From positions 468,142-532,141 of the forward strand of contig JAQTUX010000001.1 of NCBI GenBank assembly GCA_028707125.1: DNA of 64,000 nucleotides, written 5' to 3'. The translations under genes and the position numbers were made by a program. The notes under the pieces were generated by a model. The model did not search any database. It had not been told where the DNA came from and saw nothing but the letters and a program-made list of their open reading frames with translations. The stretch is from Candidatus Omnitrophota bacterium (GTDB lineage: Bacteria; Omnitrophota; Gorgyraeia; Gygaellales; JAQTUX01). Position 1 is the first letter of the stretch. Every line of letters starts with the position of its first letter. This document shows positions 1,835-57,643 of the stretch, piece by piece.

Positions 1835-2781
1835 TTGGACAGCCGCGGGCAATAGCGCTCATCAAGTCGCAATTAAAAGAGGGCACGCTTAAGGGCTCGT
1901 ATCTGTTCTGCGGCCCGTCCGGCATAGGCAAGACATTGACCGCGCTGGCCCTGGCAAAGGCGCTTAACTGCCAGGAGCAGGGCGATGATTCTTGCGGCGC
2001 CTGCCCTTCCTGCAGGAAGATAGACGGCCTTAATCATCCCGATGTTTTCCTGATAGAGAAGAAGGAAGGCGACTCGCAGATAAAGGTGGATGACATACGC
2101 CTGATGCTGGAAAGGATCGCCTTAAGGCCGTTTGAGGCAAAATGGAAGGTGTTTATTATCAGGGACGCGCAATACCTGAGTTTAGAGAGCGCCAACTGTC
2201 TGCTCAAGGCGCTGGAGGAGCCGCCGGATAATTCGCTGATCATACTCACCACGTCAAATTCCGCGGCGGTCATCCCCACGATCATCTCCAGGTGCAAGAA
2301 GGTTACCTTCGGCAGCCTGCCGCTTAAGGCGGTGGGGGATATCCTCTCGGAGAAGTATTCGCTGGAGGCGGACACGAGCCGATTTCTCGCCCAGTTCAGC
2401 GGGGGCTCTCCGGGTGAGGCGGCAAGGTTCAAGGATATGGATATGCTGGTCGTAAAGAACAGCATAATAGACACCTTTTTGTTCGGCCTCTACCCCAAGG
2501 TGCCCTCGGCCGTATTTGACGACGAGAGAGAGGACCTGAGATTTACCCTGGCGGTGTTAGCCGCCTACCTTCGCGATCTATGGATGCTGAAGATCGGCCT
2601 CAACAGCCGCCTGATAAATGAAGACAGGGCGGACAACCTTGAGTCAATGAGCGGCAGGTACAGTTTTGAGGAGCTGGACGCTGCATTTAACGACCTGAGC
2701 CAGTTGTCCTACCTGGCCGAGAGAAACGTAAGCACGAAACTGATATTCAACTTTCTGAGGTTAAGATTATGCAAGAGATAG
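1816..2781 (+). CDS. holB: DNA polymerase III delta-prime subunit
   Basis: AAA+ Walker A GPSGIGKT, zinc module CQEQGDDSCGACPSCRKI and sensor region. Sits directly downstream of tmk as in many bacteria. Confidence 0.8.
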   Translation: MSFKNIIGQPRAIALIKSQLKEGTLKGSYLFCGPSGIGKTLTALALAKALNCQEQGDDSCGACPSCRKIDGLNHPDVFLIEKKEGDSQIKVDDIRLMLERIALRPFEAKWKVFIIRDAQYLSLESANCLLKALEEPPDNSLIILTTSNSAAVIPTIISRCKKVTFGSLPLKAVGDILSEKYSLEADTSRFLAQFSGGSPGEAARFKDMDMLVVKNSIIDTFLFGLYPKVPSAVFDDEREDLRFTLAVLAAYLRDLWMLKIGLNSRLINEDRADNLESMSGRYSFEELDAAFNDLSQLSYLAERNVSTKLIFNFLRLRLCKR

Positions 2782-3557
2782 TGCAGGTTAAATTAAGAGA
2801 GGCCGGGCAGTGCACTTATTTCTACAACAACGGCCTTGCCCTGAAACTGGGCGATATAGTCATTGTGGAGCAGGACAGGGGGCTTGATTACGGCCATATC
2901 GCCTGCGACGCGCAGGTTGCCGCGGAGCCGGAGAACAAGGACAATATCAAGAAGGTCCTGCGCGTGGCAACGGCTGATGACATAGAGAAGATCGCCGATA
3001 ACCAGCTTCGGGCGGCCGAGGCGCGCAAGACCTGCGTAATAAAGATCGATCAGCACCGGCTTGATATGAAACTGGTTGACTGCGAATACGCCTTTGACCG
3101 CAGCAAGATAATCTTTTACTTCACCGCGGAGGAGAGGATAGATTTCCGGGAACTGGTCAAGGAGCTGGCAGGCATATTCAAGGTAAGGATAGAGTTGAGG
3201 CAGATAGGCGTCAGGGATGAGGCGCGGCTTTTAGGGGGGCTGGGCTCCTGCGGCAGGGAGCTTTGCTGCAAGACATTCCTCAAGGACTTTGTGCCGGTCA
3301 CGATAAGGATGGCAAAGGACGAAGGCCTGCCGCTGAATCCGCCCAAGATCTCCGGGCTATGCGGACGGCTGATGTGCTGCCTGGCCTATGAATATGATAC
3401 CTACAAGGAATTCAGCCGCGGCATGCCCAGGGAGGGCGATAAGATCAGCACTCCCGAAGGCAAGGGCAAGGTCGTCTCGGTCAACATACTTAAACGCAAG
3501 GCGTACGTTGAATTGGAAGAAGGAAAACAAATAATCATAGATTATACGAAGAAATAA
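2769..3557 (+). CDS. ricT: PSP1/RicT (YaaT) family regulatory protein
   Basis: PSP1 C-terminal domain pattern with Cys-rich LGSCGRELCCKTFL...GLCGRLMCC. Conserved tmk-holB-yaaT gene order. Confidence 0.65.
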   Translation: MQEIVQVKLREAGQCTYFYNNGLALKLGDIVIVEQDRGLDYGHIACDAQVAAEPENKDNIKKVLRVATADDIEKIADNQLRAAEARKTCVIKIDQHRLDMKLVDCEYAFDRSKIIFYFTAEERIDFRELVKELAGIFKVRIELRQIGVRDEARLLGGLGSCGRELCCKTFLKDFVPVTIRMAKDEGLPLNPPKISGLCGRLMCCLAYEYDTYKEFSRGMPREGDKISTPEGKGKVVSVNILKRKAYVELEEGKQIIIDYTKK

Positions 3558-5035
3558 TGCCTGAAAAATTCTACATAACCACTCCGATCTATTACGTGAA
3601 TGCCTCTCCGCACATAGGGCATTCCTATACGACGGTTGCCGCTGATACTATCGCGCGTTTTATGAGGGGCAGGATCGGCAAGGAGAACGTGCTCTTTCTT
3701 ACCGGCACCGACGAGCACGGCCAGAAAGTGCAGCGCGCGGCGGAAGAGGCGGGCGTGGCCGTGCGGGAATTCACCGACAGGACATCCGGGAAATTCAGGG
3801 ATCTCTGGCAGGCGCTGAACATCCAATACGACGATTTTATACGCACTACGGAACAAAGGCACATTGAGGCGGTGCAGAAGGTTTTAACCATGCTTTATGA
3901 TAAGGGCGATATCTTTCAGTCAAAGTATGAGGGGCTCTACTGCACGCCCTGCGAGACATTCTGGACAGGGACTCAAGCCGAGGACGGGCTCTGCCCTGAC
4001 TGTAAGCGCAAGCTGGAAAGCATAAGCGAGACAAACTTCTTCTTTAATCTTTCTAAATATCAGGAAGCGCTTATGAAGCATATCGCCTCGCACCCGGGTT
4101 TTATCCGGCCCAGGATACGCGAGAACGAGGTGATGAGCTTTCTTGAGCATAACCGCTTGTCCGACCTGTGCATATCGCGCCCCAAAGAGCGGCTGGGCTG
4201 GGGCATCCCGCTGCCGTTCAGCCCGGATCATGTTACCTATGTCTGGTTTGACGCGCTGATAAATTACATCAGCGCGATCGGCTTCGCGCGGGACAGGAAG
4301 AAATTTGATAAATTCTGGCCGGCGGACATACACATCATGGCAAAGGACATACTCAGGCAGCACGCCATATACTGGCCGATAATGCTCATGGCCCTCGGCG
4401 AGAAGCTTCCCGAGGTAGTGTTCGCCCACGGCTGGTGGAAGATAGACGAGAAAAAGATGTCAAAGTCACTGGGCAACGTGGTTGACCCCTATGCCATGGT
4501 TGAGAAATACGGCGTAGAGGCCTACAGGTATTTCCTGCTCAGAGAGGTGCAGTTCGGCTTTGACGGCAACTTTTCCGAAGAGGCGCTGGTCAAGCGCGTC
4601 AACAGCGACCTTGCCAACGATCTGGGCAATCTCGCGCACAGGAGCGCCACGATGCTGGAGAAATACTGCGCCGGAAAACTGCCGGAGAAAGGCGGAGCGT
4701 TCCCCGCTGATTTTGACAAGGCGCTGAAAGAACTGCCTGAGGCGGTAGAGGCGTTCATGCTGGAATACAATTTCAGCGCCGCCCTTGAGAAGATATGGGG
4801 ACTTATAAACAAGGCGAACAAATACATAGAAGACACAAAGCCCTGGGCCCTGGCAAAAGAAAAGAAGGACAAGGAGCTGTATCTGTTCTTGAACCTTCTG
4901 GTTGAGGTGATAAAGACAGTGGCCGCGGCCCTTGCCGCGCTTATGCCTCAGGCCTCGCAGAAGCTGTTGAAGCAGTTCTCGGCTCCAGAGATCAAAAAGG
5001 GCGAGCCCTTGTTTCCGAGAATAGAGACCAATTGA
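3557..5035 (+). CDS. metG: methionyl-tRNA synthetase (short form without C-terminal tRNA-binding domain)
   Basis: HIGH motif (PHIGHSYT), KMSKS motif (KMSKSLGN) and zinc knuckle CTPCETF...CPDC. Confidence 0.85.
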   Translation: MPEKFYITTPIYYVNASPHIGHSYTTVAADTIARFMRGRIGKENVLFLTGTDEHGQKVQRAAEEAGVAVREFTDRTSGKFRDLWQALNIQYDDFIRTTEQRHIEAVQKVLTMLYDKGDIFQSKYEGLYCTPCETFWTGTQAEDGLCPDCKRKLESISETNFFFNLSKYQEALMKHIASHPGFIRPRIRENEVMSFLEHNRLSDLCISRPKERLGWGIPLPFSPDHVTYVWFDALINYISAIGFARDRKKFDKFWPADIHIMAKDILRQHAIYWPIMLMALGEKLPEVVFAHGWWKIDEKKMSKSLGNVVDPYAMVEKYGVEAYRYFLLREVQFGFDGNFSEEALVKRVNSDLANDLGNLAHRSATMLEKYCAGKLPEKGGAFPADFDKALKELPEAVEAFMLEYNFSAALEKIWGLINKANKYIEDTKPWALAKEKKDKELYLFLNLLVEVIKTVAAALAALMPQASQKLLKQFSAPEIKKGEPLFPRIETN

Positions 5036-24751: not shown

Positions 24752-24845
24752 GGAGAAAAAGTTGTAGAATATATTTGCAATACTCGGGTCCGGGATTGGC
24801 TGTTATTTCCGGAGGTTAAATAGTTGATGGCCGGGCCGCCATCTG

Positions 24846-40815: not shown

Positions 40816-40907
40816 GAAGCAGTGAGGAGGGAGTTTCCCGACCATCGTGTCACATAGGTCGGGATCCCGCCGAGTTACTATATAGCAGCGGGAGAACCCG
40901 AAAATAG

Positions 40908-40990
40908 TGCGGAAGGAGAGATTTGAACTCTCACAGGGTTACCCCCACAACGCCCTGAACGTTGCGTGTCTGCCATTCCACCACTTCCGC
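40908..40990 (-). tRNA. tRNA-Leu (anticodon CAG)
   Basis: Reverse complement reads GCGGAAGTGGTGGAATGGCAGACACGCAACGTTCAGGGCGTTGTGGGGGTAACCCTGTGAGAGTTCAAATCTCTCCTTCCGCA. Cloverleaf with long variable arm, anticodon loop TTCAGGG. Confidence 0.85.
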
Positions 40991-42054: not shown

Positions 42055-42507
42055 ATGGGTAAGGTCATAGCCACGAACAAAAAGGCATTAAGGGACTATT
42101 TTGTCGTCGAGACGCTTGAGGCGGGTATCGAGCTGAAGGGCTCCGAGGTAAAATCCGTGAGGGCGGCCAACGCCGACCTCAACGACGGCTATGCCAGGAT
42201 CGAGGGCGGGGAAGCCGTTCTTTATAATATGTACATAGCGCCTTATGTGGAGGCCTCTTATATGAACGTGGACCCTTTGAGGCCGAGGAGGCTTTTGCTT
42301 AAGAAGGCGCAGATAACGAAGTTGATGCAGCAGGCCTCGCAAAAGGGCTGCACGCTTATACCGCTTAGATTATATTTTTCAGACAGGGGCTTTGCCAAGA
42401 TAGAGCTTGCCGTATGCAAAGGCAAGAGGATGTTTGATAAGCGCCAGGCAATAAAGGAAAGGGAGGTTGGCCTGGCGATCAAACGCACTTTGCGCGCGAG
42501 GCGATAA
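42055..42507 (+). CDS. smpB: SsrA-binding protein
   Basis: KVIATNKKALRDYFV...GIELKGSEVKS...GYARIEGGEA; canonical SmpB, immediately upstream of ssrA. Confidence 0.9.
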   Translation: MGKVIATNKKALRDYFVVETLEAGIELKGSEVKSVRAANADLNDGYARIEGGEAVLYNMYIAPYVEASYMNVDPLRPRRLLLKKAQITKLMQQASQKGCTLIPLRLYFSDRGFAKIELAVCKGKRMFDKRQAIKEREVGLAIKRTLRARR

Positions 42508-42937
42508 TATGTTAGAATTGGGTAAGGAAAGGAGGGGGTGATCTGGTCTCGACCTGAGACGAGCCGGGTAAGAGCAGCATGCCGCGGACGCAGGGTAGGC
42601 CGCGTTAACAATCCTTGCACATATAAACGCTAACGAACAGTTGACGTTTAACGGGCTGATGAGCACAATGGAAGTGGTTCCTTCCACTTTTGTTGCGCCT
42701 CAGTTCGCGCTAAGCCTCGTTCGTTAATTAACGAACGAGCCTCTACTTAGCCCTGTCTGGGGGCTGGGATAGAGCGGTTACAGACTGGCTCCAATAGTTT
42801 GCCTTTGTAGTTGGGGCGAGATCTTAAAAGGCTGCTGTTCCGGCGATTCTGTTTATCGAAGCGGCGGAAAGTAAGCATAAAAGATAAACTAAGCATGTAG
42901 CGGCTTTTATCGGGCTGCTTGGGGACGCGGGTTCGAT

Positions 42938-43578
42938 CGGTAAAGGTCGACTCCCGAAGCAATTCGGGATGAAAAATCTGGCTTACATCAGGGAAACCCT
43001 AACGTAGAGACGAGGGCAACCCTGAGGGGTGATGAGCCCTGCAGAGACTGCCTCTTTTAAGAGGCGATAGGAGGCGATACCGTTGGAAGAAGTCGAGAAA
43101 GCGTATATCGCGGGAATCGTTGATGGCGAAGGGACTGTAACCTTGATGAAGCACCATAAAAATGAGACGCATATCCCTTTTGTTGGGATTGCTAATAATA
43201 ATTTGGGGCTTCTGAAGTGGATTAAGTCTCTGGTGGGCGGCAATATTTGTTCGAAGAAGAAAAGATTGCCGCATCACAATGATTCCTATGTCTTAAACAT
43301 AAGACAGGATAGGGCTTTACGTTTTCTCGGCGAAATAGGCGAATACCTGATCGTAAAGAAACCACAGGCAGAATTGATACTGCAGAAGTATAAGTCTGTC
43401 ACGCATCGTAACGGAAGATATACTCCTGCGTTGCTGCAAAAAAAGATGCAGTTGGTTGCCGAGATCAGAAGGCTTAACCAGCGGTAAATATATGCCTCTT
43501 ATAATATGCCAGGCTCCGTCAGGGATTTAGGCGGATGAAGAGATAGTCCACGCTATTTGGAAAACAAATAGATAAGTG
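42938..43578 (+). mobile_element. group I-like intron (641 nt) in the tmRNA T-loop, encoding a LAGLIDADG homing endonuclease
   Basis: Exon 1 ends in U that can pair with intron G in a P1 helix (exon UCGAU / intron GUCGA, loop cgguaaag). Intron ends in G. LAGLIDADG ORF sits inside. Exon junction restores TTCGATT T-loop. Confidence 0.65.
43083..43487 (+). CDS. LAGLIDADG-family homing endonuclease (single-motif, I-CreI-like size)
   Basis: KAYIAGIVDGEGTV motif near the N-terminus, 134 aa, basic C-terminus; intron-internal. TTG start with GGAGG RBS. Confidence 0.7.
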   Translation: MEEVEKAYIAGIVDGEGTVTLMKHHKNETHIPFVGIANNNLGLLKWIKSLVGGNICSKKKRLPHHNDSYVLNIRQDRALRFLGEIGEYLIVKKPQAELILQKYKSVTHRNGRYTPALLQKKMQLVAEIRRLNQR

Positions 43579-43591
43579 TCCCGCCACCTCC

Positions 43592-43635
43592 ACCAACTTT
43601 TTCCGACAAGGAAAAAGTTGGTGGATACTTAACGA
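43592..43635 (+). terminator. hairpin terminator overlapping the tmRNA CCA end
   Basis: ccaccaactttttccgacaaggaaaaagttggtgg forms a 13-bp stem. Confidence 0.5.
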
Positions 43636-43707
43636 GCGTAGCGCTGCGACAAGCAGCGCAGCGAGTTAAGTATCTTAAACGAGTGTAGTGCCTAACAAGA
43701 AAGCTTA

Positions 43708-56007: not shown

Positions 56008-56082
56008 CGGGGCGTGGCTCAGTTTGGCTAGAGCGTGTGGTTTGGGACCACAAGGTCACAGGTTCGAATCCTGTCGCCCCGA
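56008..56082 (+). tRNA. tRNA-Pro (anticodon TGG)
   Basis: CGGGGCGTGGCTCAGTTTGGCTAGAGCGTGTGGTTTGGGACCACAAGGTCACAGGTTCGAATCCTGTCGCCCCGA; anticodon loop TTTGGGA. Confidence 0.9.
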
Positions 56083-56092
56083 CTGGATAAAT

Positions 56093-56167
56093 GTCCCTGT
56101 AGCTCAGTTGGATAGAGCATCTGCCTTCTAAGCAGAGGGTCGCCTGTTCGAATCAGGCCAGGGACGC
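56093..56167 (+). tRNA. tRNA-Arg (anticodon TCT)
   Basis: GTCCCTGTAGCTCAGTTGGATAGAGCATCTGCCTTCTAAGCAGAGGGTCGCCTGTTCGAATCAGGCCAGGGACG; anticodon loop CTTCTAA. Confidence 0.9.
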
Positions 56168-56197
56168 TGAGATGTAAACCCGATAGGGTATTTATAT

Positions 56198-57523
56198 ATG
56201 ATCAATAAGAAAAAACTGTTGCCGGAGGTCCTGCTGATCGCGCTGGGCGCCTGCTCTGTTTTGGTCCTCGCGGTATATGTTTTTGTTTCCCTTAATTACA
56301 GGGCGATGGTCGCCTCCGGACTGAAGGGCCTGACCTCCAAGGATATCTCGGTCGGCTCAAGCGAGCTCAGGTTTCCCTTGACGGTCACGCTCAACGACTT
56401 GAAGGTAGAGGACCTGTTTGAGGCAAAGGAATTCAGGGTCGGCATCAGCGTGATCGGGTTGATCTTCGGGGACTTGGTGTTCTCTGAGGTCTACCTGGGC
56501 GGGCCGAAGCTCACGATGGAACTCAATAAGCCGCTGATAGATTCAGAGCCGCAGCTGCCGGGCGATGGCATAGAGGCAGCGGCTATTGATGTAAGCAAGA
56601 TACCGCTTCCTCCGGCAGCGCCTTCGGTTTCTGAGGCGCGCGCTGTTGCCGAAGATGAGACGCCCACCAGAGGGTTTGTCATAAAGCGCCTGCGCGTTAA
56701 AGACGGCAGCATTGATATTGTTGACAGGAATGCCGGGCCGGAAGGCCTGCTCATATATCTTAACGCCGTGAACGCGGATATAGAGAATTTTTATTTCGCG
56801 CCTGAGCCGGTCATCACCAACTTTAATATCAGCGCGCGCATGCCCTGGCAGGGCGGCGGCAAAGAGGGGAGTTTCAACTTCGCCGGATGGATGAACCTGT
56901 TCCAGAGGGATATGCAGGCAGACCTGAATATCAACGGCATAGACGGGGTTTACCTGAGCCCTTATTATTCGGAATGGGTTGACGTTGAGGGCGCGCGCAT
57001 AAACGAGGCGTACCTGAATTTTTCCAGCAACCTGAGCGCGGCGAATAACAACCTGACCGCCAGGTGCCATCTTGAGCTGACGGATATAAAATTTAATCCC
57101 CGCCCCGAGGGAGAAGAATTCAATAAGGCGGAGAAGATCACCTCGGCAGTGCTGGATATATTCCGCGAGATGGATAAGGGCAAGGTGGAGCTGAATTTTA
57201 CCCTGAACACCACTATGGACAAGCCGGGCTTCGGCATCAACACCATACGCCAGGCAGTGGATGAGAAGATAGCCCGGAGAGGCAATAAGCTTGGGCCGGA
57301 AGACCTCCTGGCTTTGCCCATTAAGTTCTTGAGCAACGCGCTGAAGGGCACGATCAAAAGCACAGCCGAGATATCCCGCGCCTTGGTCGGCGGTACCATT
57401 GAGATCGGCAGGGAGATGAAGAAGTCCGTTGAAGGCGCCTTCAGCAAGGACGAGACAGAGTTGAAGGACATAGAATCAGGAGAAACACAGGAACCGGAGA
57501 ATAAAAGCAGCGATTTGAATTGA
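56198..57523 (+). CDS. hypothetical membrane-anchored protein (DUF748/AsmA-N-like)
   Basis: N-terminal TM helix and beta-rich body; no catalytic motif recognised. Confidence 0.3.
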   Translation: MINKKKLLPEVLLIALGACSVLVLAVYVFVSLNYRAMVASGLKGLTSKDISVGSSELRFPLTVTLNDLKVEDLFEAKEFRVGISVIGLIFGDLVFSEVYLGGPKLTMELNKPLIDSEPQLPGDGIEAAAIDVSKIPLPPAAPSVSEARAVAEDETPTRGFVIKRLRVKDGSIDIVDRNAGPEGLLIYLNAVNADIENFYFAPEPVITNFNISARMPWQGGGKEGSFNFAGWMNLFQRDMQADLNINGIDGVYLSPYYSEWVDVEGARINEAYLNFSSNLSAANNNLTARCHLELTDIKFNPRPEGEEFNKAEKITSAVLDIFREMDKGKVELNFTLNTTMDKPGFGINTIRQAVDEKIARRGNKLGPEDLLALPIKFLSNALKGTIKSTAEISRALVGGTIEIGREMKKSVEGAFSKDETELKDIESGETQEPENKSSDLN

Positions 57524-57531
57524 TAGATAAT

Positions 57532-57608
57532 GGTGGGTGTAGCTCAGTCTGGTTCAGAGCACTTGACTGTGGCTCAAGTGGCCGCGGGTTCAAATCCCGT
57601 CACCCACC
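57532..57608 (+). tRNA. tRNA-His (anticodon GTG) with extra 5' G(-1)
   Basis: GGTGGGTGTAGCTCAGTCTGGTTCAGAGCACTTGACTGTGGCTCAAGTGGCCGCGGGTTCAAATCCCGTCACCCACC; anticodon loop CTGTGGC. Confidence 0.9.
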
Positions 57609-57643
57609 CCTTTGATTGTAACTTATTGAGATGAAATGAGTTA

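Follow-up and report, generated by a model that had tools for sequence, protein, structure and literature searches.

The tmRNA gene in the 64,000-nucleotide stretch of Omnitrophota DNA analyzed here (the window) is, with a probability of roughly 0.9, an intron-form gene, in which an IA-type group I intron that carries a LAGLIDADG homing endonuclease gene interrupts the T-loop and is removed by splicing. That the insert belongs to the group I introns is established by the covariation across 22 homologous introns and 38 cross-phylum matches; splicing of this particular intron we infer by analogy. A 2025 survey (PMC11915505) already covers the class of gene, the insertion site, the type of endonuclease and the phylum, and the window intron adds a member, whose sequence is new among the collections searched.

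The interrupted tmRNA gene and its virtually spliced product

All features described below are on the forward strand. The gene for SmpB, the protein partner of tmRNA, is intact (positions 42055-42507; open reading frame of 150 amino acids; Pfam SmpB PF01668, 178.6 bits) and lies upstream of the tmRNA gene, at a distance of 26 nucleotides. The interrupted tmRNA gene as a whole is 1062 bp long and can be divided into three parts: exon 1 (42534-42937), which begins with GGGGGTGATCTGG at 42534, ends with ...GGACGCGGGTTCGAT at 42937, and contains the tag reading frame and the pseudoknot region as well as the 5' strands of the acceptor stem and the T-stem and T-loop nucleotides 1-6; the group I intron of 641 nucleotides (42938-43578), which begins with CGGTAAAGGTCGAC, ends with ...ATAAGTG, and is inserted at internucleotide position 7 of the T-loop, with U42937 at position -1 and G43578 as its last nucleotide; and exon 2 (43579-43595; TCCCGCCACCTCCACCA), which in 17 nucleotides supplies T-loop nucleotide 7, the 3' strands of the T-stem and acceptor stem, and ACCA. 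Exon 1 is delimited by the Rfam tmRNA model RF00023 and by ARAGORN on the virtually spliced sequence; exon 2 by its sequence and virtual splicing; and the intron by the alignment to the Rfam group I model RF00028, virtual splicing, covariation and a model built from homologous introns (R1). To the base, these boundaries agree with the coordinates given in the preliminary description.

A promoter scan found nothing promoter-like upstream of 42534. At the other end of the gene, the hairpin that had been described as a terminator is real (43589-43625; 16 bp, including the CCACCA 3' end; -26.8 kcal/mol, z = -6.9), but it remains a putative terminator, since no U-tract follows it and it was passed over by the terminator scan. 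The gene is also present in an independent assembly: Logan contig L001, from run SRR22315508, which shares its source with the window DNA, starts from 56 nucleotides of exon 1 and continues through the entire intron and exon 2 into the amidase gene downstream. Both splice junctions are thus spanned, and an assembly chimera is ruled out. Within the 64-kb window, neither Rfam nor model R1 finds a second tmRNA or a second copy of the intron.

The division of the gene is evident from virtual splicing. In the raw window, as in the unspliced segment, ARAGORN detects no tmRNA, as expected for an interrupted gene; it reports one, of 421 nucleotides, only once 42938-43578 is taken out. The claim that the tmRNA is split in its T-loop is borne out by this result, and 51 of 54 related loci pass the same test. 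The match to RF00023 (42542-42958; 106 bits against a gathering threshold of 47) lacks the 3' acceptor strand, the loss falling precisely at the junction proposed. At the predicted exon junction, ...GGGTTCGAT is joined to TCCCGCCACC, which restores a T-arm of GCGGG/TTCGATT/CCCGC with a T-loop of seven nucleotides, and an acceptor stem of 7 bp (GGGGGTG/CACCTCC, as read from the sequence) that includes G3:U70.

The tail by which proteases recognize a tmRNA tag is typically ...ALAA. The reading frame predicted for the tag in the window (42629-42727, from the resume codon GCU to UAA) encodes ANEQLTFNGLMSTMEVVPSTFVAPQFALSLVR, a long, non-canonical tag of 32 amino acids with the C-terminus LVR in place of the canonical ...LAA, and is reported by ARAGORN as 'Tag not identified'. 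Such a tag might suggest that the insertion is dead and the tmRNA a pseudogene, trans-translation being either lost or carried out by a tmRNA gene outside the window; our view is indeed limited to 64 kb of the genome, and an intact second tmRNA could sit elsewhere. However, long non-canonical tags occur in most of the Omnitrophota relatives (the tag of the Bacillota relatives is AEDNFALAA), which points to a trait of the lineage and not to decay. Moreover, the exons still give a tmRNA that ARAGORN accepts, and the adjoining smpB gene is intact.

Genes of this form are missed by standard annotation, because ARAGORN returns a blank and Rfam a tmRNA without a 3' end, and similar genomes would be scored as lacking tmRNA. 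In the 2025 survey, tmRNA is assigned to only 72% of Omnitrophota genomes (PMC11915505).

Secondary structure, covariation and predicted splicing of the intron

The intron can be folded into a full group I core, with the helices P1, P2 and P9. P1 (42933-42950) is formed by the exon bases UCGAU plus the first C of the intron (42933-42938) and the guide GGUCGA (42945-42950), and the 5' splice site is marked by the wobble U42937.G42946. A P1 of this kind, between exon UCGAU and intron GUCGA, had been proposed and holds up: all 22 introns have the U.G wobble, and exon and guide covary in three relatives (L016, L021 and L024), whose exon T-loop has UGCGAU in place of UUCGAU and whose guide has GUCGC in place of GUCGA. 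The junction finder accepted only introns that end in G and follow a U or C, so that the universality of these two features among the relatives is partly built in, and their terminal G does not count as independent evidence. An earlier version of the junction finder, which called for an encoded CCA and a TTCRANN loop, missed relatives with the UGCGAU loop and relatives without CCA, and the criteria were widened. P2 is a hairpin of 7 bp with a GCAA tetraloop (42952-42969), in which 7 of 7 pairs are changed on both sides and 100% of the cells are paired.

The catalytic core is divided into two sides, each supported by covariation and by a sequence block that agrees with the RF00028 consensus. 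The 5' side (42977-43049) contains the 5' strand of P3 (42977-42982), P4 (42988-42993/43020-43025), P5 (42997-43000/43013-43016), P6 (43026-43028/43037-43039), J6/7 and the 5' strand of P7 (43044-43049, with A43045 bulged), and its consensus block is GCAGAGACU (J6/7-P7). The 3' side (43508-43549) contains the 3' strand of P3 (43508-43513), P8 (43515-43520/43530-43535), J8/7 (UGAAGAGAU, 43536-43544) and the 3' strand of P7 (AGUCC, 43545-43549), and its consensus block is GAAGAGAUAGUCC (J8/7-P7'). Between P7 and the 3' strand of P3 lie the P7.1 hairpin (43050-43065; 6 of 6 pairs changed on both sides) and the 9-bp helix P7.2, which pairs AUAGGAGGC (43067-43075; 99.5% of cells paired) with GCCUCUUAU (43494-43502; placed by the covariation alignment). 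The presence of P7.1 and P7.2 at this place is a mark of subgroup IA; the finer subgroup may be IA3, following the 2002 description. The last helix, P9 (43553-43559/43565-43571; pairing by eye and in the cross-phylum alignment), is followed by a tail that extends to the terminal G at 43578.

Covariation was evaluated on a structure-blind MAFFT alignment of the 22 homologous introns. The paired cells amount to 92.6%, against 35-54% with slid partners, and 34 of 65 pairs are changed on both sides; in none of 500 shuffles were the observed values reached. P3 and P4 show compensatory changes, with 100% of their cells paired. P6 and P7 vary little or not at all, and since P7 never varies, covariation neither supports nor contradicts it. 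P9 pairs in every sequence by eye, although only 61.6% of its cells are paired on the MAFFT alignment, where it is misregistered. In addition, model R1 recovers the Clostridium and Bacillus tmRNA introns at 54-121 bits, and in the cross-phylum alignment of 38 matches 88.9% of the cells are paired and 47 of 59 pairs covary. The group I-like character first seen by inspection is thus substantiated, and these sequence comparisons place the intron in the same ribozyme family as the Clostridium and Bacillus tmRNA introns.

At gathering thresholds, Rfam reports no group I match in the insert. RF00028 does match it from end to end, at 32.8 bits against a gathering threshold of 50 (E = 1.8e-6 in a search of 781 nucleotides), with an alignment that is partly wrong, as it places the 3' strand of P3 and P8 inside the open reading frame, and that was not relied on. 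Thus, covariance-model searches recover the tmRNA proposed earlier well above its threshold (RF00023) and leave the proposed intron under its own (RF00028). The low score of the intron is likely due to the insertion of 418 nucleotides in L7.2 and to a seed that is devoid of bacterial sequences. The absence of any bacterial sequence from the group I seed alignment is described in a preprint whose own pipeline uses a threshold of 20 bits (10.1101/2020.01.27.920355).

A score under the gathering cutoff would also fit a pseudogene. A decaying insert, however, is not expected to keep its helices by compensatory changes over 22 lineages, and the SmpB proteins of the intron-bearing lineages in the alignment are only 43-61% identical to that of the window. 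On balance, we judge a dead insertion to be very improbable.

In the spliced, intron-form gene that we favor, a precursor of about 1.06 kb would be transcribed, and the IA-type intron would fold, bind an external guanosine and excise itself in two transesterification steps, the first at U42937, within the U.G wobble of P1, and the second after G43578. Splicing would link T-loop nucleotide 6 to nucleotide 7. Since the T-arm and the acceptor stem would exist only afterwards, alanine charging, SmpB binding and trans-translation would all depend on splicing, and ribosome rescue in this lineage would hang on a ribozyme reaction.

Two-piece tmRNAs are known in several lineages (PMC11915505), and one could imagine that the insert in the window is not removed by self-splicing. 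The gene is not circularly permuted, however, and a cut RNA would have only the T-stem (5 bp) and the acceptor stem (7 bp) to keep its pieces together, with the T-loop broken. The full, covariation-backed group I core also argues against this possibility, as do the U.G wobble and the terminal G, whose positions are precisely those at which ligation gives back a T-loop of seven nucleotides; we assign it next to no weight.

The endonuclease gene and its relatives

The loop of P7.2 contains an open reading frame of 134 amino acids (43083-43487), with a TTG start and the single motif IAGIVDGEG, which we assign to the I-CreI-like LAGLIDADG homing endonucleases. The assignment is supported by the Pfam family LAGLIDADG_3 (PF14528; 24.1 bits against a cutoff of 22.5), by the invariance of D14, G15, E16 and G17 in 24 homologs, by the alignment of E16 with the acidic residue of both I-AniI motifs, and by an AlphaFold2 model (pLDDT 92.7; order H-E-E-H-E-E-H) whose top Foldseek matches are I-MsoI, I-CreI and I-CvuI (TM 0.73-0.80, around 0.75; probability 1.00). 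A LAGLIDADG gene had been recognized here before from its motif, and these results confirm it. A sequence search of the PDB gave marginal matches only (E = 0.005-0.9, the top one a spurious histone), and the fold search was used instead. I-CreI, I-MsoI and I-CvuI are homodimeric single-motif endonucleases from group I introns in organellar 23S rRNA. From its single motif and the behavior of this family, the window enzyme most likely acts as a homodimer as well.

A putative Shine-Dalgarno sequence, AGGAGG (43069-43074), lies 8 nucleotides ahead of the TTG start and inside the 5' strand of P7.2. Because AGGAGG is one strand of this helix, folding of the ribozyme and translation of the endonuclease are probably mutually exclusive. 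In introns with an endonuclease gene, the purine strand of P7.2 is fixed and the partner strand toggles between C and U; in introns without one, the helix varies freely in the cross-phylum alignment.

The reading frame is under purifying selection, with a dN/dS of 0.10 relative to its counterpart at locus L003 and a median of 0.12, synonymous sites being saturated in most pairs. Selection of this kind would be expected of a maturase no less than of a nuclease, and it may be asked whether the intron splices but its reading frame, no longer a homing endonuclease, is kept as a maturase or for a host function, in an element that is vertically inherited. Strong selection combined with saturated synonymous sites suggests long retention and not the usual cycle of gain, decay and loss; LAGLIDADG maturases such as bI3 are among the structural matches, though far down the list; and the reading frame is located in a ribozyme helix. 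The metal-binding E16 of DGEG is nevertheless invariant in 24 of 24 homologs, and the comparison with L003 points to recent lateral movement of the endonuclease gene: the two endonucleases are 92% identical against 58% for SmpB, and at the DNA level the identity is 90% in the reading frame but 69% and 78% in the ribozyme halves on either side of it. Free-standing homologs in Bacillota are also intact, which a pure maturase role would not account for. We therefore regard loss of the homing function as unlikely, if less so than a dead insertion. For the closest GTDB species representative, the identities are 91-92% in the endonuclease, about 75% in the exon and 58% in SmpB.

As a homing endonuclease, by analogy with its family, the protein would likely target intronless tmRNA genes and cut at or near ...GGGTTCGAT^TCCCGCC... 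(the intronless T-arm site is GGGGACGCGGGTTCGATTCCCGCCACCTCCACCA), and repair copied from the intron-bearing allele would spread the element. Few sequences in bacteria are as conserved as the intron site, and this would make it an ideal homing site. No vector was found: phage collections contain only LAGLIDADG genes of 28-34% identity in unrelated phage contexts, and plasmid collections contain none.

Homologs of the endonuclease occupy several positions relative to tmRNA genes. In 32 convergent Bacillota loci, including cultured isolates, free-standing homologs lie just outside intron-bearing tmRNA genes, mostly 30-60 nucleotides past the tmRNA 3' end, and the tmRNA introns are without a reading frame. 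At two loci (L063 and L070) the free-standing gene is co-oriented with a tmRNA whose intron also has no reading frame, at two others (L022 and L023) it lies beside an intronless tmRNA, and at L008 a rearranged remnant is found; in the window and 21 relatives the gene is in the P7.2 loop. Among the remaining Bacillota loci with distant homologs, 18 of 20 have no tmRNA nearby in an Rfam scan (nhmmer with a tmRNA exon profile was too insensitive for these loci), indicating that the association of distant homologs with tmRNA is frequent but not universal. Our literature search found no description of a free-standing endonuclease beside an intron-bearing tmRNA gene in Bacillota.

These arrangements may be viewed as graded positions of one endonuclease family and, if the free-standing enzymes cut the insertion site, tmRNA would provide a record of the merging of an intron with an endonuclease gene, a tentative proposal to which we give slightly less than an even chance. 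If true, it would help to explain why only 4.1% of tmRNA introns seem to bear an endonuclease gene, and the new details contributed by the window would be a ribosome-binding site in P7.2 and an exchange of reading frames between ribozyme subtypes. In addition, the occurrence of free-standing homologs in Clostridium and the Bacillus group means that tmRNA could become a tractable model for the association of introns with homing endonucleases.

Comparison with known systems

The founding case of an intron-form tmRNA is that of Clostridium botulinum (reference 11 of PMC11915505; PMC2729099), whose intron is reported to be self-splicing. The preliminary description took introns at this position to be rarely reported, with a clostridial example, a view that is now outdated. 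The survey counts 883 unique intron-form sequences in 21 phyla, most of them interrupted at the same T-loop position, with at least 150 bits in the authors' tmRNA_intron covariance model as the criterion; 18 position-7 instances come from Omnitrophota (600 genomes), and 36 introns contain LAGLIDADG genes, a proportion (4.1%) remarked there as low (PMC11915505). The endonuclease-bearing type may be commoner in Omnitrophota metagenomes than the 36 catalogued cases suggest; in the protein database, close homologs of the window endonuclease form more than 160 clusters at 90% identity.

The window intron shares with the other intron-form tmRNAs the host gene, the insertion between T-loop nucleotides 6 and 7, and the boundary rules of a U.G wobble at -1 and a terminal G. 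It differs in length, being 641 nucleotides long against an average of 293 and against 287 in C. botulinum, because it carries a reading frame. With the 36 endonuclease-bearing introns it has in common a LAGLIDADG gene between P7 and the 3' strand of P3, the majority site (of the 23 founding cases, 19 are in the 'P7.1 region' and 4 after P9), and a length below 700 nucleotides, as in all those reported (PMC11915505). The placement of the gene in the P7.2 loop, with the 5' strand of P7.2 as putative ribosome-binding site, is not described in the accessible part of that paper. The window gene does not set a record for length, with 1062 bp compared to reported genes of 1116 bp and 1152 bp (PMC11915505).

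Like I-CreI, I-MsoI and I-CvuI, the window protein has a single motif with an acidic residue in the catalytic position and is encoded inside a group I intron, and it is predicted to adopt their alpha-beta-beta-alpha-beta-beta-alpha fold. It is, however, only 17-24% identical to these enzymes and shorter (134 amino acids against 152-170), it has a glutamate at the metal-binding position where I-CreI has an aspartate, and its putative target is a tRNA-like T-arm in contrast to their 23S rDNA.

The group I introns of bacterial tRNA anticodon loops, in cyanobacteria and others, also interrupt a loop of a tRNA-shaped RNA and follow the same boundary logic, with the exon loop providing the 5' strand of P1 (10.1101/2020.01.27.920355). 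Their site is the anticodon loop, which tmRNA does not have, whereas the window intron is in the T-loop.

An arrangement known as 'collaborative homing', in which a free-standing endonuclease accompanies an intron that has none of its own, is exemplified by psbA of cyanophages. In phage T4, it is represented by mobE/I-TevIII (PMC2790892). The resemblance extends to the Bacillota relatives alone, which are candidate cases on the basis of their gene layout; in the window, by contrast, the intron itself already houses the endonuclease gene.

A tmRNA gene interrupted in its T-loop

On the forward strand of the window, a tmRNA gene begins at 42534 (GGGGGTGATCTGG), 26 nt beyond smpB (42055-42507, forward strand; Pfam SmpB, 178.6 bits), and its tRNA-like 3' domain breaks off after ...GGACGCGGGTTCGAT at 42937. 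Inspection of the sequence places exon 2 (TCCCGCCACCTCCACCA) at 43579-43595 on the same strand, so that smpB, exon 1, insert and exon 2 lie exactly as in the preliminary description. Over 42542-42958 the Rfam model for tmRNA reaches 106 bits, but it leaves the 3' acceptor strand unplaced. ARAGORN finds no tmRNA in the window or in the unspliced segment, but calls a 421-nt tmRNA after in silico removal of 42938-43578. As had been proposed, this removal restores both the T-arm (GCGGG/TTCGATT/CCCGC) and the acceptor stem (7 bp, GGGGGTG/CACCTCC, including the G3:U70 pair). An independent Logan contig (SRR22315508) shows the same arrangement, running from 56 nt of exon 1 through the entire insert and exon 2 to the next gene, and an assembly artefact is therefore ruled out.

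The CCACCA 3' end of the tmRNA pairs with downstream sequence in a perfect 16-bp hairpin (43589-43625). The hairpin had been described as a terminator; it is present, but lacks the U-tract of a classic terminator and may rather have a role in 3' processing or protection. The same design, in a different sequence, occurs just past the tmRNA of L005, one of the loci retrieved as encoding relatives of the window endonuclease (coordinates following such a handle are internal to the locus).

The predicted tag reading frame in the window lies at 42629-42727, and similar tags are predicted in L006, L007, L011, L013, L015, L017-L019 and L026. As predicted by ARAGORN, most Omnitrophota tags run to 25-32 amino acids, have a high content of Pro, Met and Ala, and carry non-canonical ends (for example ...LVR, ...AFAN, ...GLN, ...ALAH); all Bacillota relatives have the classic ...ALAA type. 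The odd tags reflect either frame misprediction by ARAGORN or a different degradation signal in the phylum. Other RNA features in the window include an nhaA-I (RF03057) riboswitch-class motif at 24786-24844 on the forward strand (Rfam 47.4 bits, gathering score 37), a tRNA-Leu(CAG) at 40907-40990 on the reverse strand, called by ARAGORN and absent from the Rfam scan at gathering level, and three tRNAs at 56008-57610 found by both methods.

Covariation and family of the ribozyme

The generic group I model of Rfam, RF00028, has no match in the insert at its gathering score. A permissive scan yields an end-to-end match of 32.8 bits against the gathering score of 50 (E = 1.8e-6, 781 nt searched), which picks out two core blocks, GCAGAGACU (J6/7-P7) and GAAGAGAUAGUCC (J8/7-P7'), but misplaces P3' and P8 within the open reading frame (ORF). 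The structure was therefore tested independently of Rfam. The scored structure was drawn beforehand from the window sequence alone and comprises P1 (in which GGUCGA pairs with exon UCGAU and the following intron C), P2 capped by a GCAA tetraloop, P3, P4, P5, P6, P7 containing a bulged A, the additional hairpins P7.1 and P7.2, P8 and P9. The test set consists of 22 introns, namely that of the window and those of 21 fetched loci with a homolog inside a tmRNA T-loop insert of the same boundaries; the ORF was removed at homologous positions and the ribozyme parts were aligned by MAFFT, which is blind to structure.

In these 22 introns, 92.6% of cells are paired, as against 35-54% with the partners displaced by 1-3 columns; changes on both sides occur in 34 of the 65 pairs (168 cells), and none of 500 shuffles matches any observed measure of pairing or covariation. 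Every position of P2, P7.1 and P8 varies with pairing kept, P3 pairs in 100% of cells and covaries at three positions, and P4, P6 and P7 are almost invariant, as a catalytic core would predict. P9 is only 61.6% paired, the sole reason being that MAFFT misregisters its loop. The P1 helix proposed earlier (exon UCGAU, intron GUCGA) is borne out by a U.G wobble at the splice site in 22/22 introns and by L016, L021 and L024, in which the exon T-loop has shifted from UUCGAU to UGCGAU and the guide sequence from GUCGA to GUCGC, a compensatory exon-intron change across P1.

A covariance model built from the 22 ribozyme parts (R1) matches the window in two pieces flanking the ORF, at 134.8 and 56.4 bits, with no other match in the 64 kb. 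It also matches L070 (161 bits) and the ORF-less tmRNA introns of Clostridium, the Bacillus group and the Tissierella group (54-121 bits). In a cross-phylum alignment, which was fitted to the model and hence is biased toward the structure, pairing holds in 88.9% of cells, and both sides are changed in 47 of 59 pairs (0/500 shuffles). The window intron therefore belongs to the family of clostridial tmRNA introns, and this pairing, with the covariation among the 22 introns, upholds its identification as group I. The two hairpins between P7 and the 3' strand of P3 mark subgroup IA; the finer label is presumably IA3, following a 2002 description. A 287-nt family member from C. botulinum is reported to self-splice (PMC2729099), and we infer splicing for the window intron.

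The endonuclease gene and its mobility

The LAGLIDADG ORF (43083-43487, forward strand; TTG start, 134 amino acids) lies within the P7.2 loop. It scores just over the cutoff of Pfam LAGLIDADG_3 (24.1 versus 22.5 bits), and residues A10, G11, I12, D14, G15, E16 and G17 are invariant in 24 aligned homologs, E16 aligning with the acidic residue of both I-AniI motifs. An AlphaFold2 model (pLDDT 92.7, pTM 0.84) has the order helix-strand-strand-helix-strand-strand-helix, and among solved structures this predicted fold is best matched by I-MsoI, I-CreI and I-CvuI, all homodimeric endonucleases of introns (TM 0.73-0.80, probability 1.00). The ORF is thus the LAGLIDADG gene it was first read as, with a putative nuclease activity and target site. 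It has more than 160 close homologs, and relatives are encoded by 326 stretches of GTDB species genomes; those with names are from Omnitrophota, which makes that phylum the most likely source of the window. Purifying selection on the gene is strong, with a dN/dS of 0.10 against L003, the closest GTDB relative, and a median of 0.12 among pairs with unsaturated synonymous sites, and most pairs are saturated at synonymous sites with amino-acid identity still at 60-80%.

The 5' strand of P7.2, AUAGGAGGC, includes a Shine-Dalgarno AGGAGG 8 nt ahead of the start codon. In the 22 ORF-containing introns this purine strand is fixed and its partner toggles between C and U only, whereas ORF-less introns show free double substitutions in the helix. 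The pattern fits a dual role as ribozyme helix and ribosome-binding site, through which ribozyme folding may regulate endonuclease translation.

Between the window and L003, SmpB is 58% identical and the endonuclease 92%; DNA identity is 90% for the ORF (43083-43487 versus L003 2501-2902), 69% and 78% for the ribozyme halves, and 75% for exon 1. The P1-P2 region of the window is of a subtype common to L006, L007 and L026, whereas its ORF groups with those of L003 and L025, both of the other subtype. The window element is a mosaic, and its ORF appears to move independently of the ribozyme. Judged from these identities and subtypes, the ORF has moved between hosts more recently than the hosts diverged, and probably between ribozymes as well. 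Searches of phage and plasmid collections found no vehicle for the element.

The same tmRNA intron with an endonuclease in P7.2 is seen in metagenome-assembled genomes (MAGs) labelled as other phyla (L010 and L014, Planctomycetales; L016, Pseudomonadota; L021 and L024, Deltaproteobacteria; L020, WOR-1), at 53-67% endonuclease identity, which indicates either cross-phylum spread or outdated or incorrect MAG taxonomy.

Several related loci are irregular. L008 (2340-3010) is rearranged: its tmRNA 3' end is complete, with a 6-nt T-loop (TTCGAT) missing the T at the intron insertion site, and is followed by unrelated sequence (about 100 nt), the 5' strand of P7.2 including the ribosome-binding site, an intact endonuclease ORF, the full ribozyme 3' half and another exon 2 in degraded form (TTCTGCCACCA). 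The locus may represent an intermediate of intron loss or a chimera produced in MAG assembly. In L026 (2501-2907) the endonuclease gene is apparently disrupted (tblastn matches residues 58-134 only) and the ribozyme and exons look intact. The gene may be in decay within an intron that still functions. L011, L014, L020 and L021 have lost the usual stop, and their ORFs (ending at 2986, 2956, 2941 and 2944, respectively) extend 12-27 codons into the 3' ribozyme strands of P7.2, P3 and P8, giving proteins of about 146-161 amino acids. L012 has two candidate tmRNA 3' exons about 150 nt apart, at 2986 and 3137 (TCCCCG...CACCTCCACCA and ACCTCG...CACCTCCACCA), which might have arisen by duplication or be a scar left where an element integrated at the 3' end of the tmRNA.

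Known tmRNA introns and endonuclease homologs outside the intron

The interrupted gene is confirmed as an observation, and its interpretation is supported. The preliminary description held such introns to be rare, citing a clostridial case only; this is out of date. A 2025 survey (PMC11915505) distinguishes three tmRNA gene forms and counts 883 unique sequences of the intron form across 21 phyla, each having its intron within the T-loop and most, like that of the window, at internucleotide position 7. Omnitrophota are among them (600 genomes, 416 standard genes, 18 position-7 intron instances), and the window case was thus correctly identified as one of a known class, which is already on record for this phylum. 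The survey also gives LAGLIDADG genes in 36 intron-form tmRNAs (4.1%, a fraction it calls low), assigns 19 of 23 founding cases to the 'P7.1 region' and the other 4 to a site after P9, and reports no tmRNA intron above 700 bp, the longest intron-form genes being 1116 and 1152 bp. It makes no mention of adjacent or downstream endonuclease genes, and a full-text literature search returned no description of a free-standing endonuclease beside a tmRNA.

Such an arrangement is found in 32 Bacillota loci among the 80 fetched, although retrieval by endonuclease similarity makes this count uninformative on the fraction of ORF-less tmRNA introns with such a neighbor. In these loci the tmRNA has an ORF-less position-7 intron of 252-419 nt, and a homolog 40-50% identical to the window protein and mostly intact (131-138 amino acids) lies convergently on the opposite strand, in most cases with its stop codon 30-60 nt from the tmRNA CCA end (L027, L029, L032, L036-L038, L040, L042, L049, L050, L053, L055-L058, L060, L062, L064-L066, L069, L072-L081). 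L072 is an example (tmRNA 2948-3578, reverse strand; intron 2965-3241; endonuclease 2501-2911, forward strand). They include the cultured isolates C. argentinense CDC 2741, C. algidicarnis DSM 15099, Cytobacillus eiseniae DSM 26675 and Siminovitchia fortis DSM 16012, in which a hairpin separates the two genes. About 19 further Bacillota loci have neither a tmRNA nor an intron match nearby.

In L063 (tmRNA 1628-2251, endonuclease 2316-2816) and L070 (tmRNA 1833-2428, intron 2176-2411, endonuclease 2501-2866) the homolog lies 65-73 nt downstream of a tmRNA that contains an intron, in the same orientation; the L070 ribozyme is a near-twin of the window's (R1, 161 bits), yet its P7.2 loop is empty. 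In L022 (tmRNA 1544-1895, endonuclease 1998-2399) and L023 (tmRNA 1-344, endonuclease 444-848) an uninterrupted tmRNA with the T-loop UGCAAAU is followed, about 100 nt downstream, by a 58% identical homolog, a free-standing gene beside an intronless and possibly resistant target. With free-standing homologs near a tmRNA whose intron lacks an ORF, the Bacillota arrangement resembles collaborative homing, and its linkage and homology suggest that it may be a case of it.
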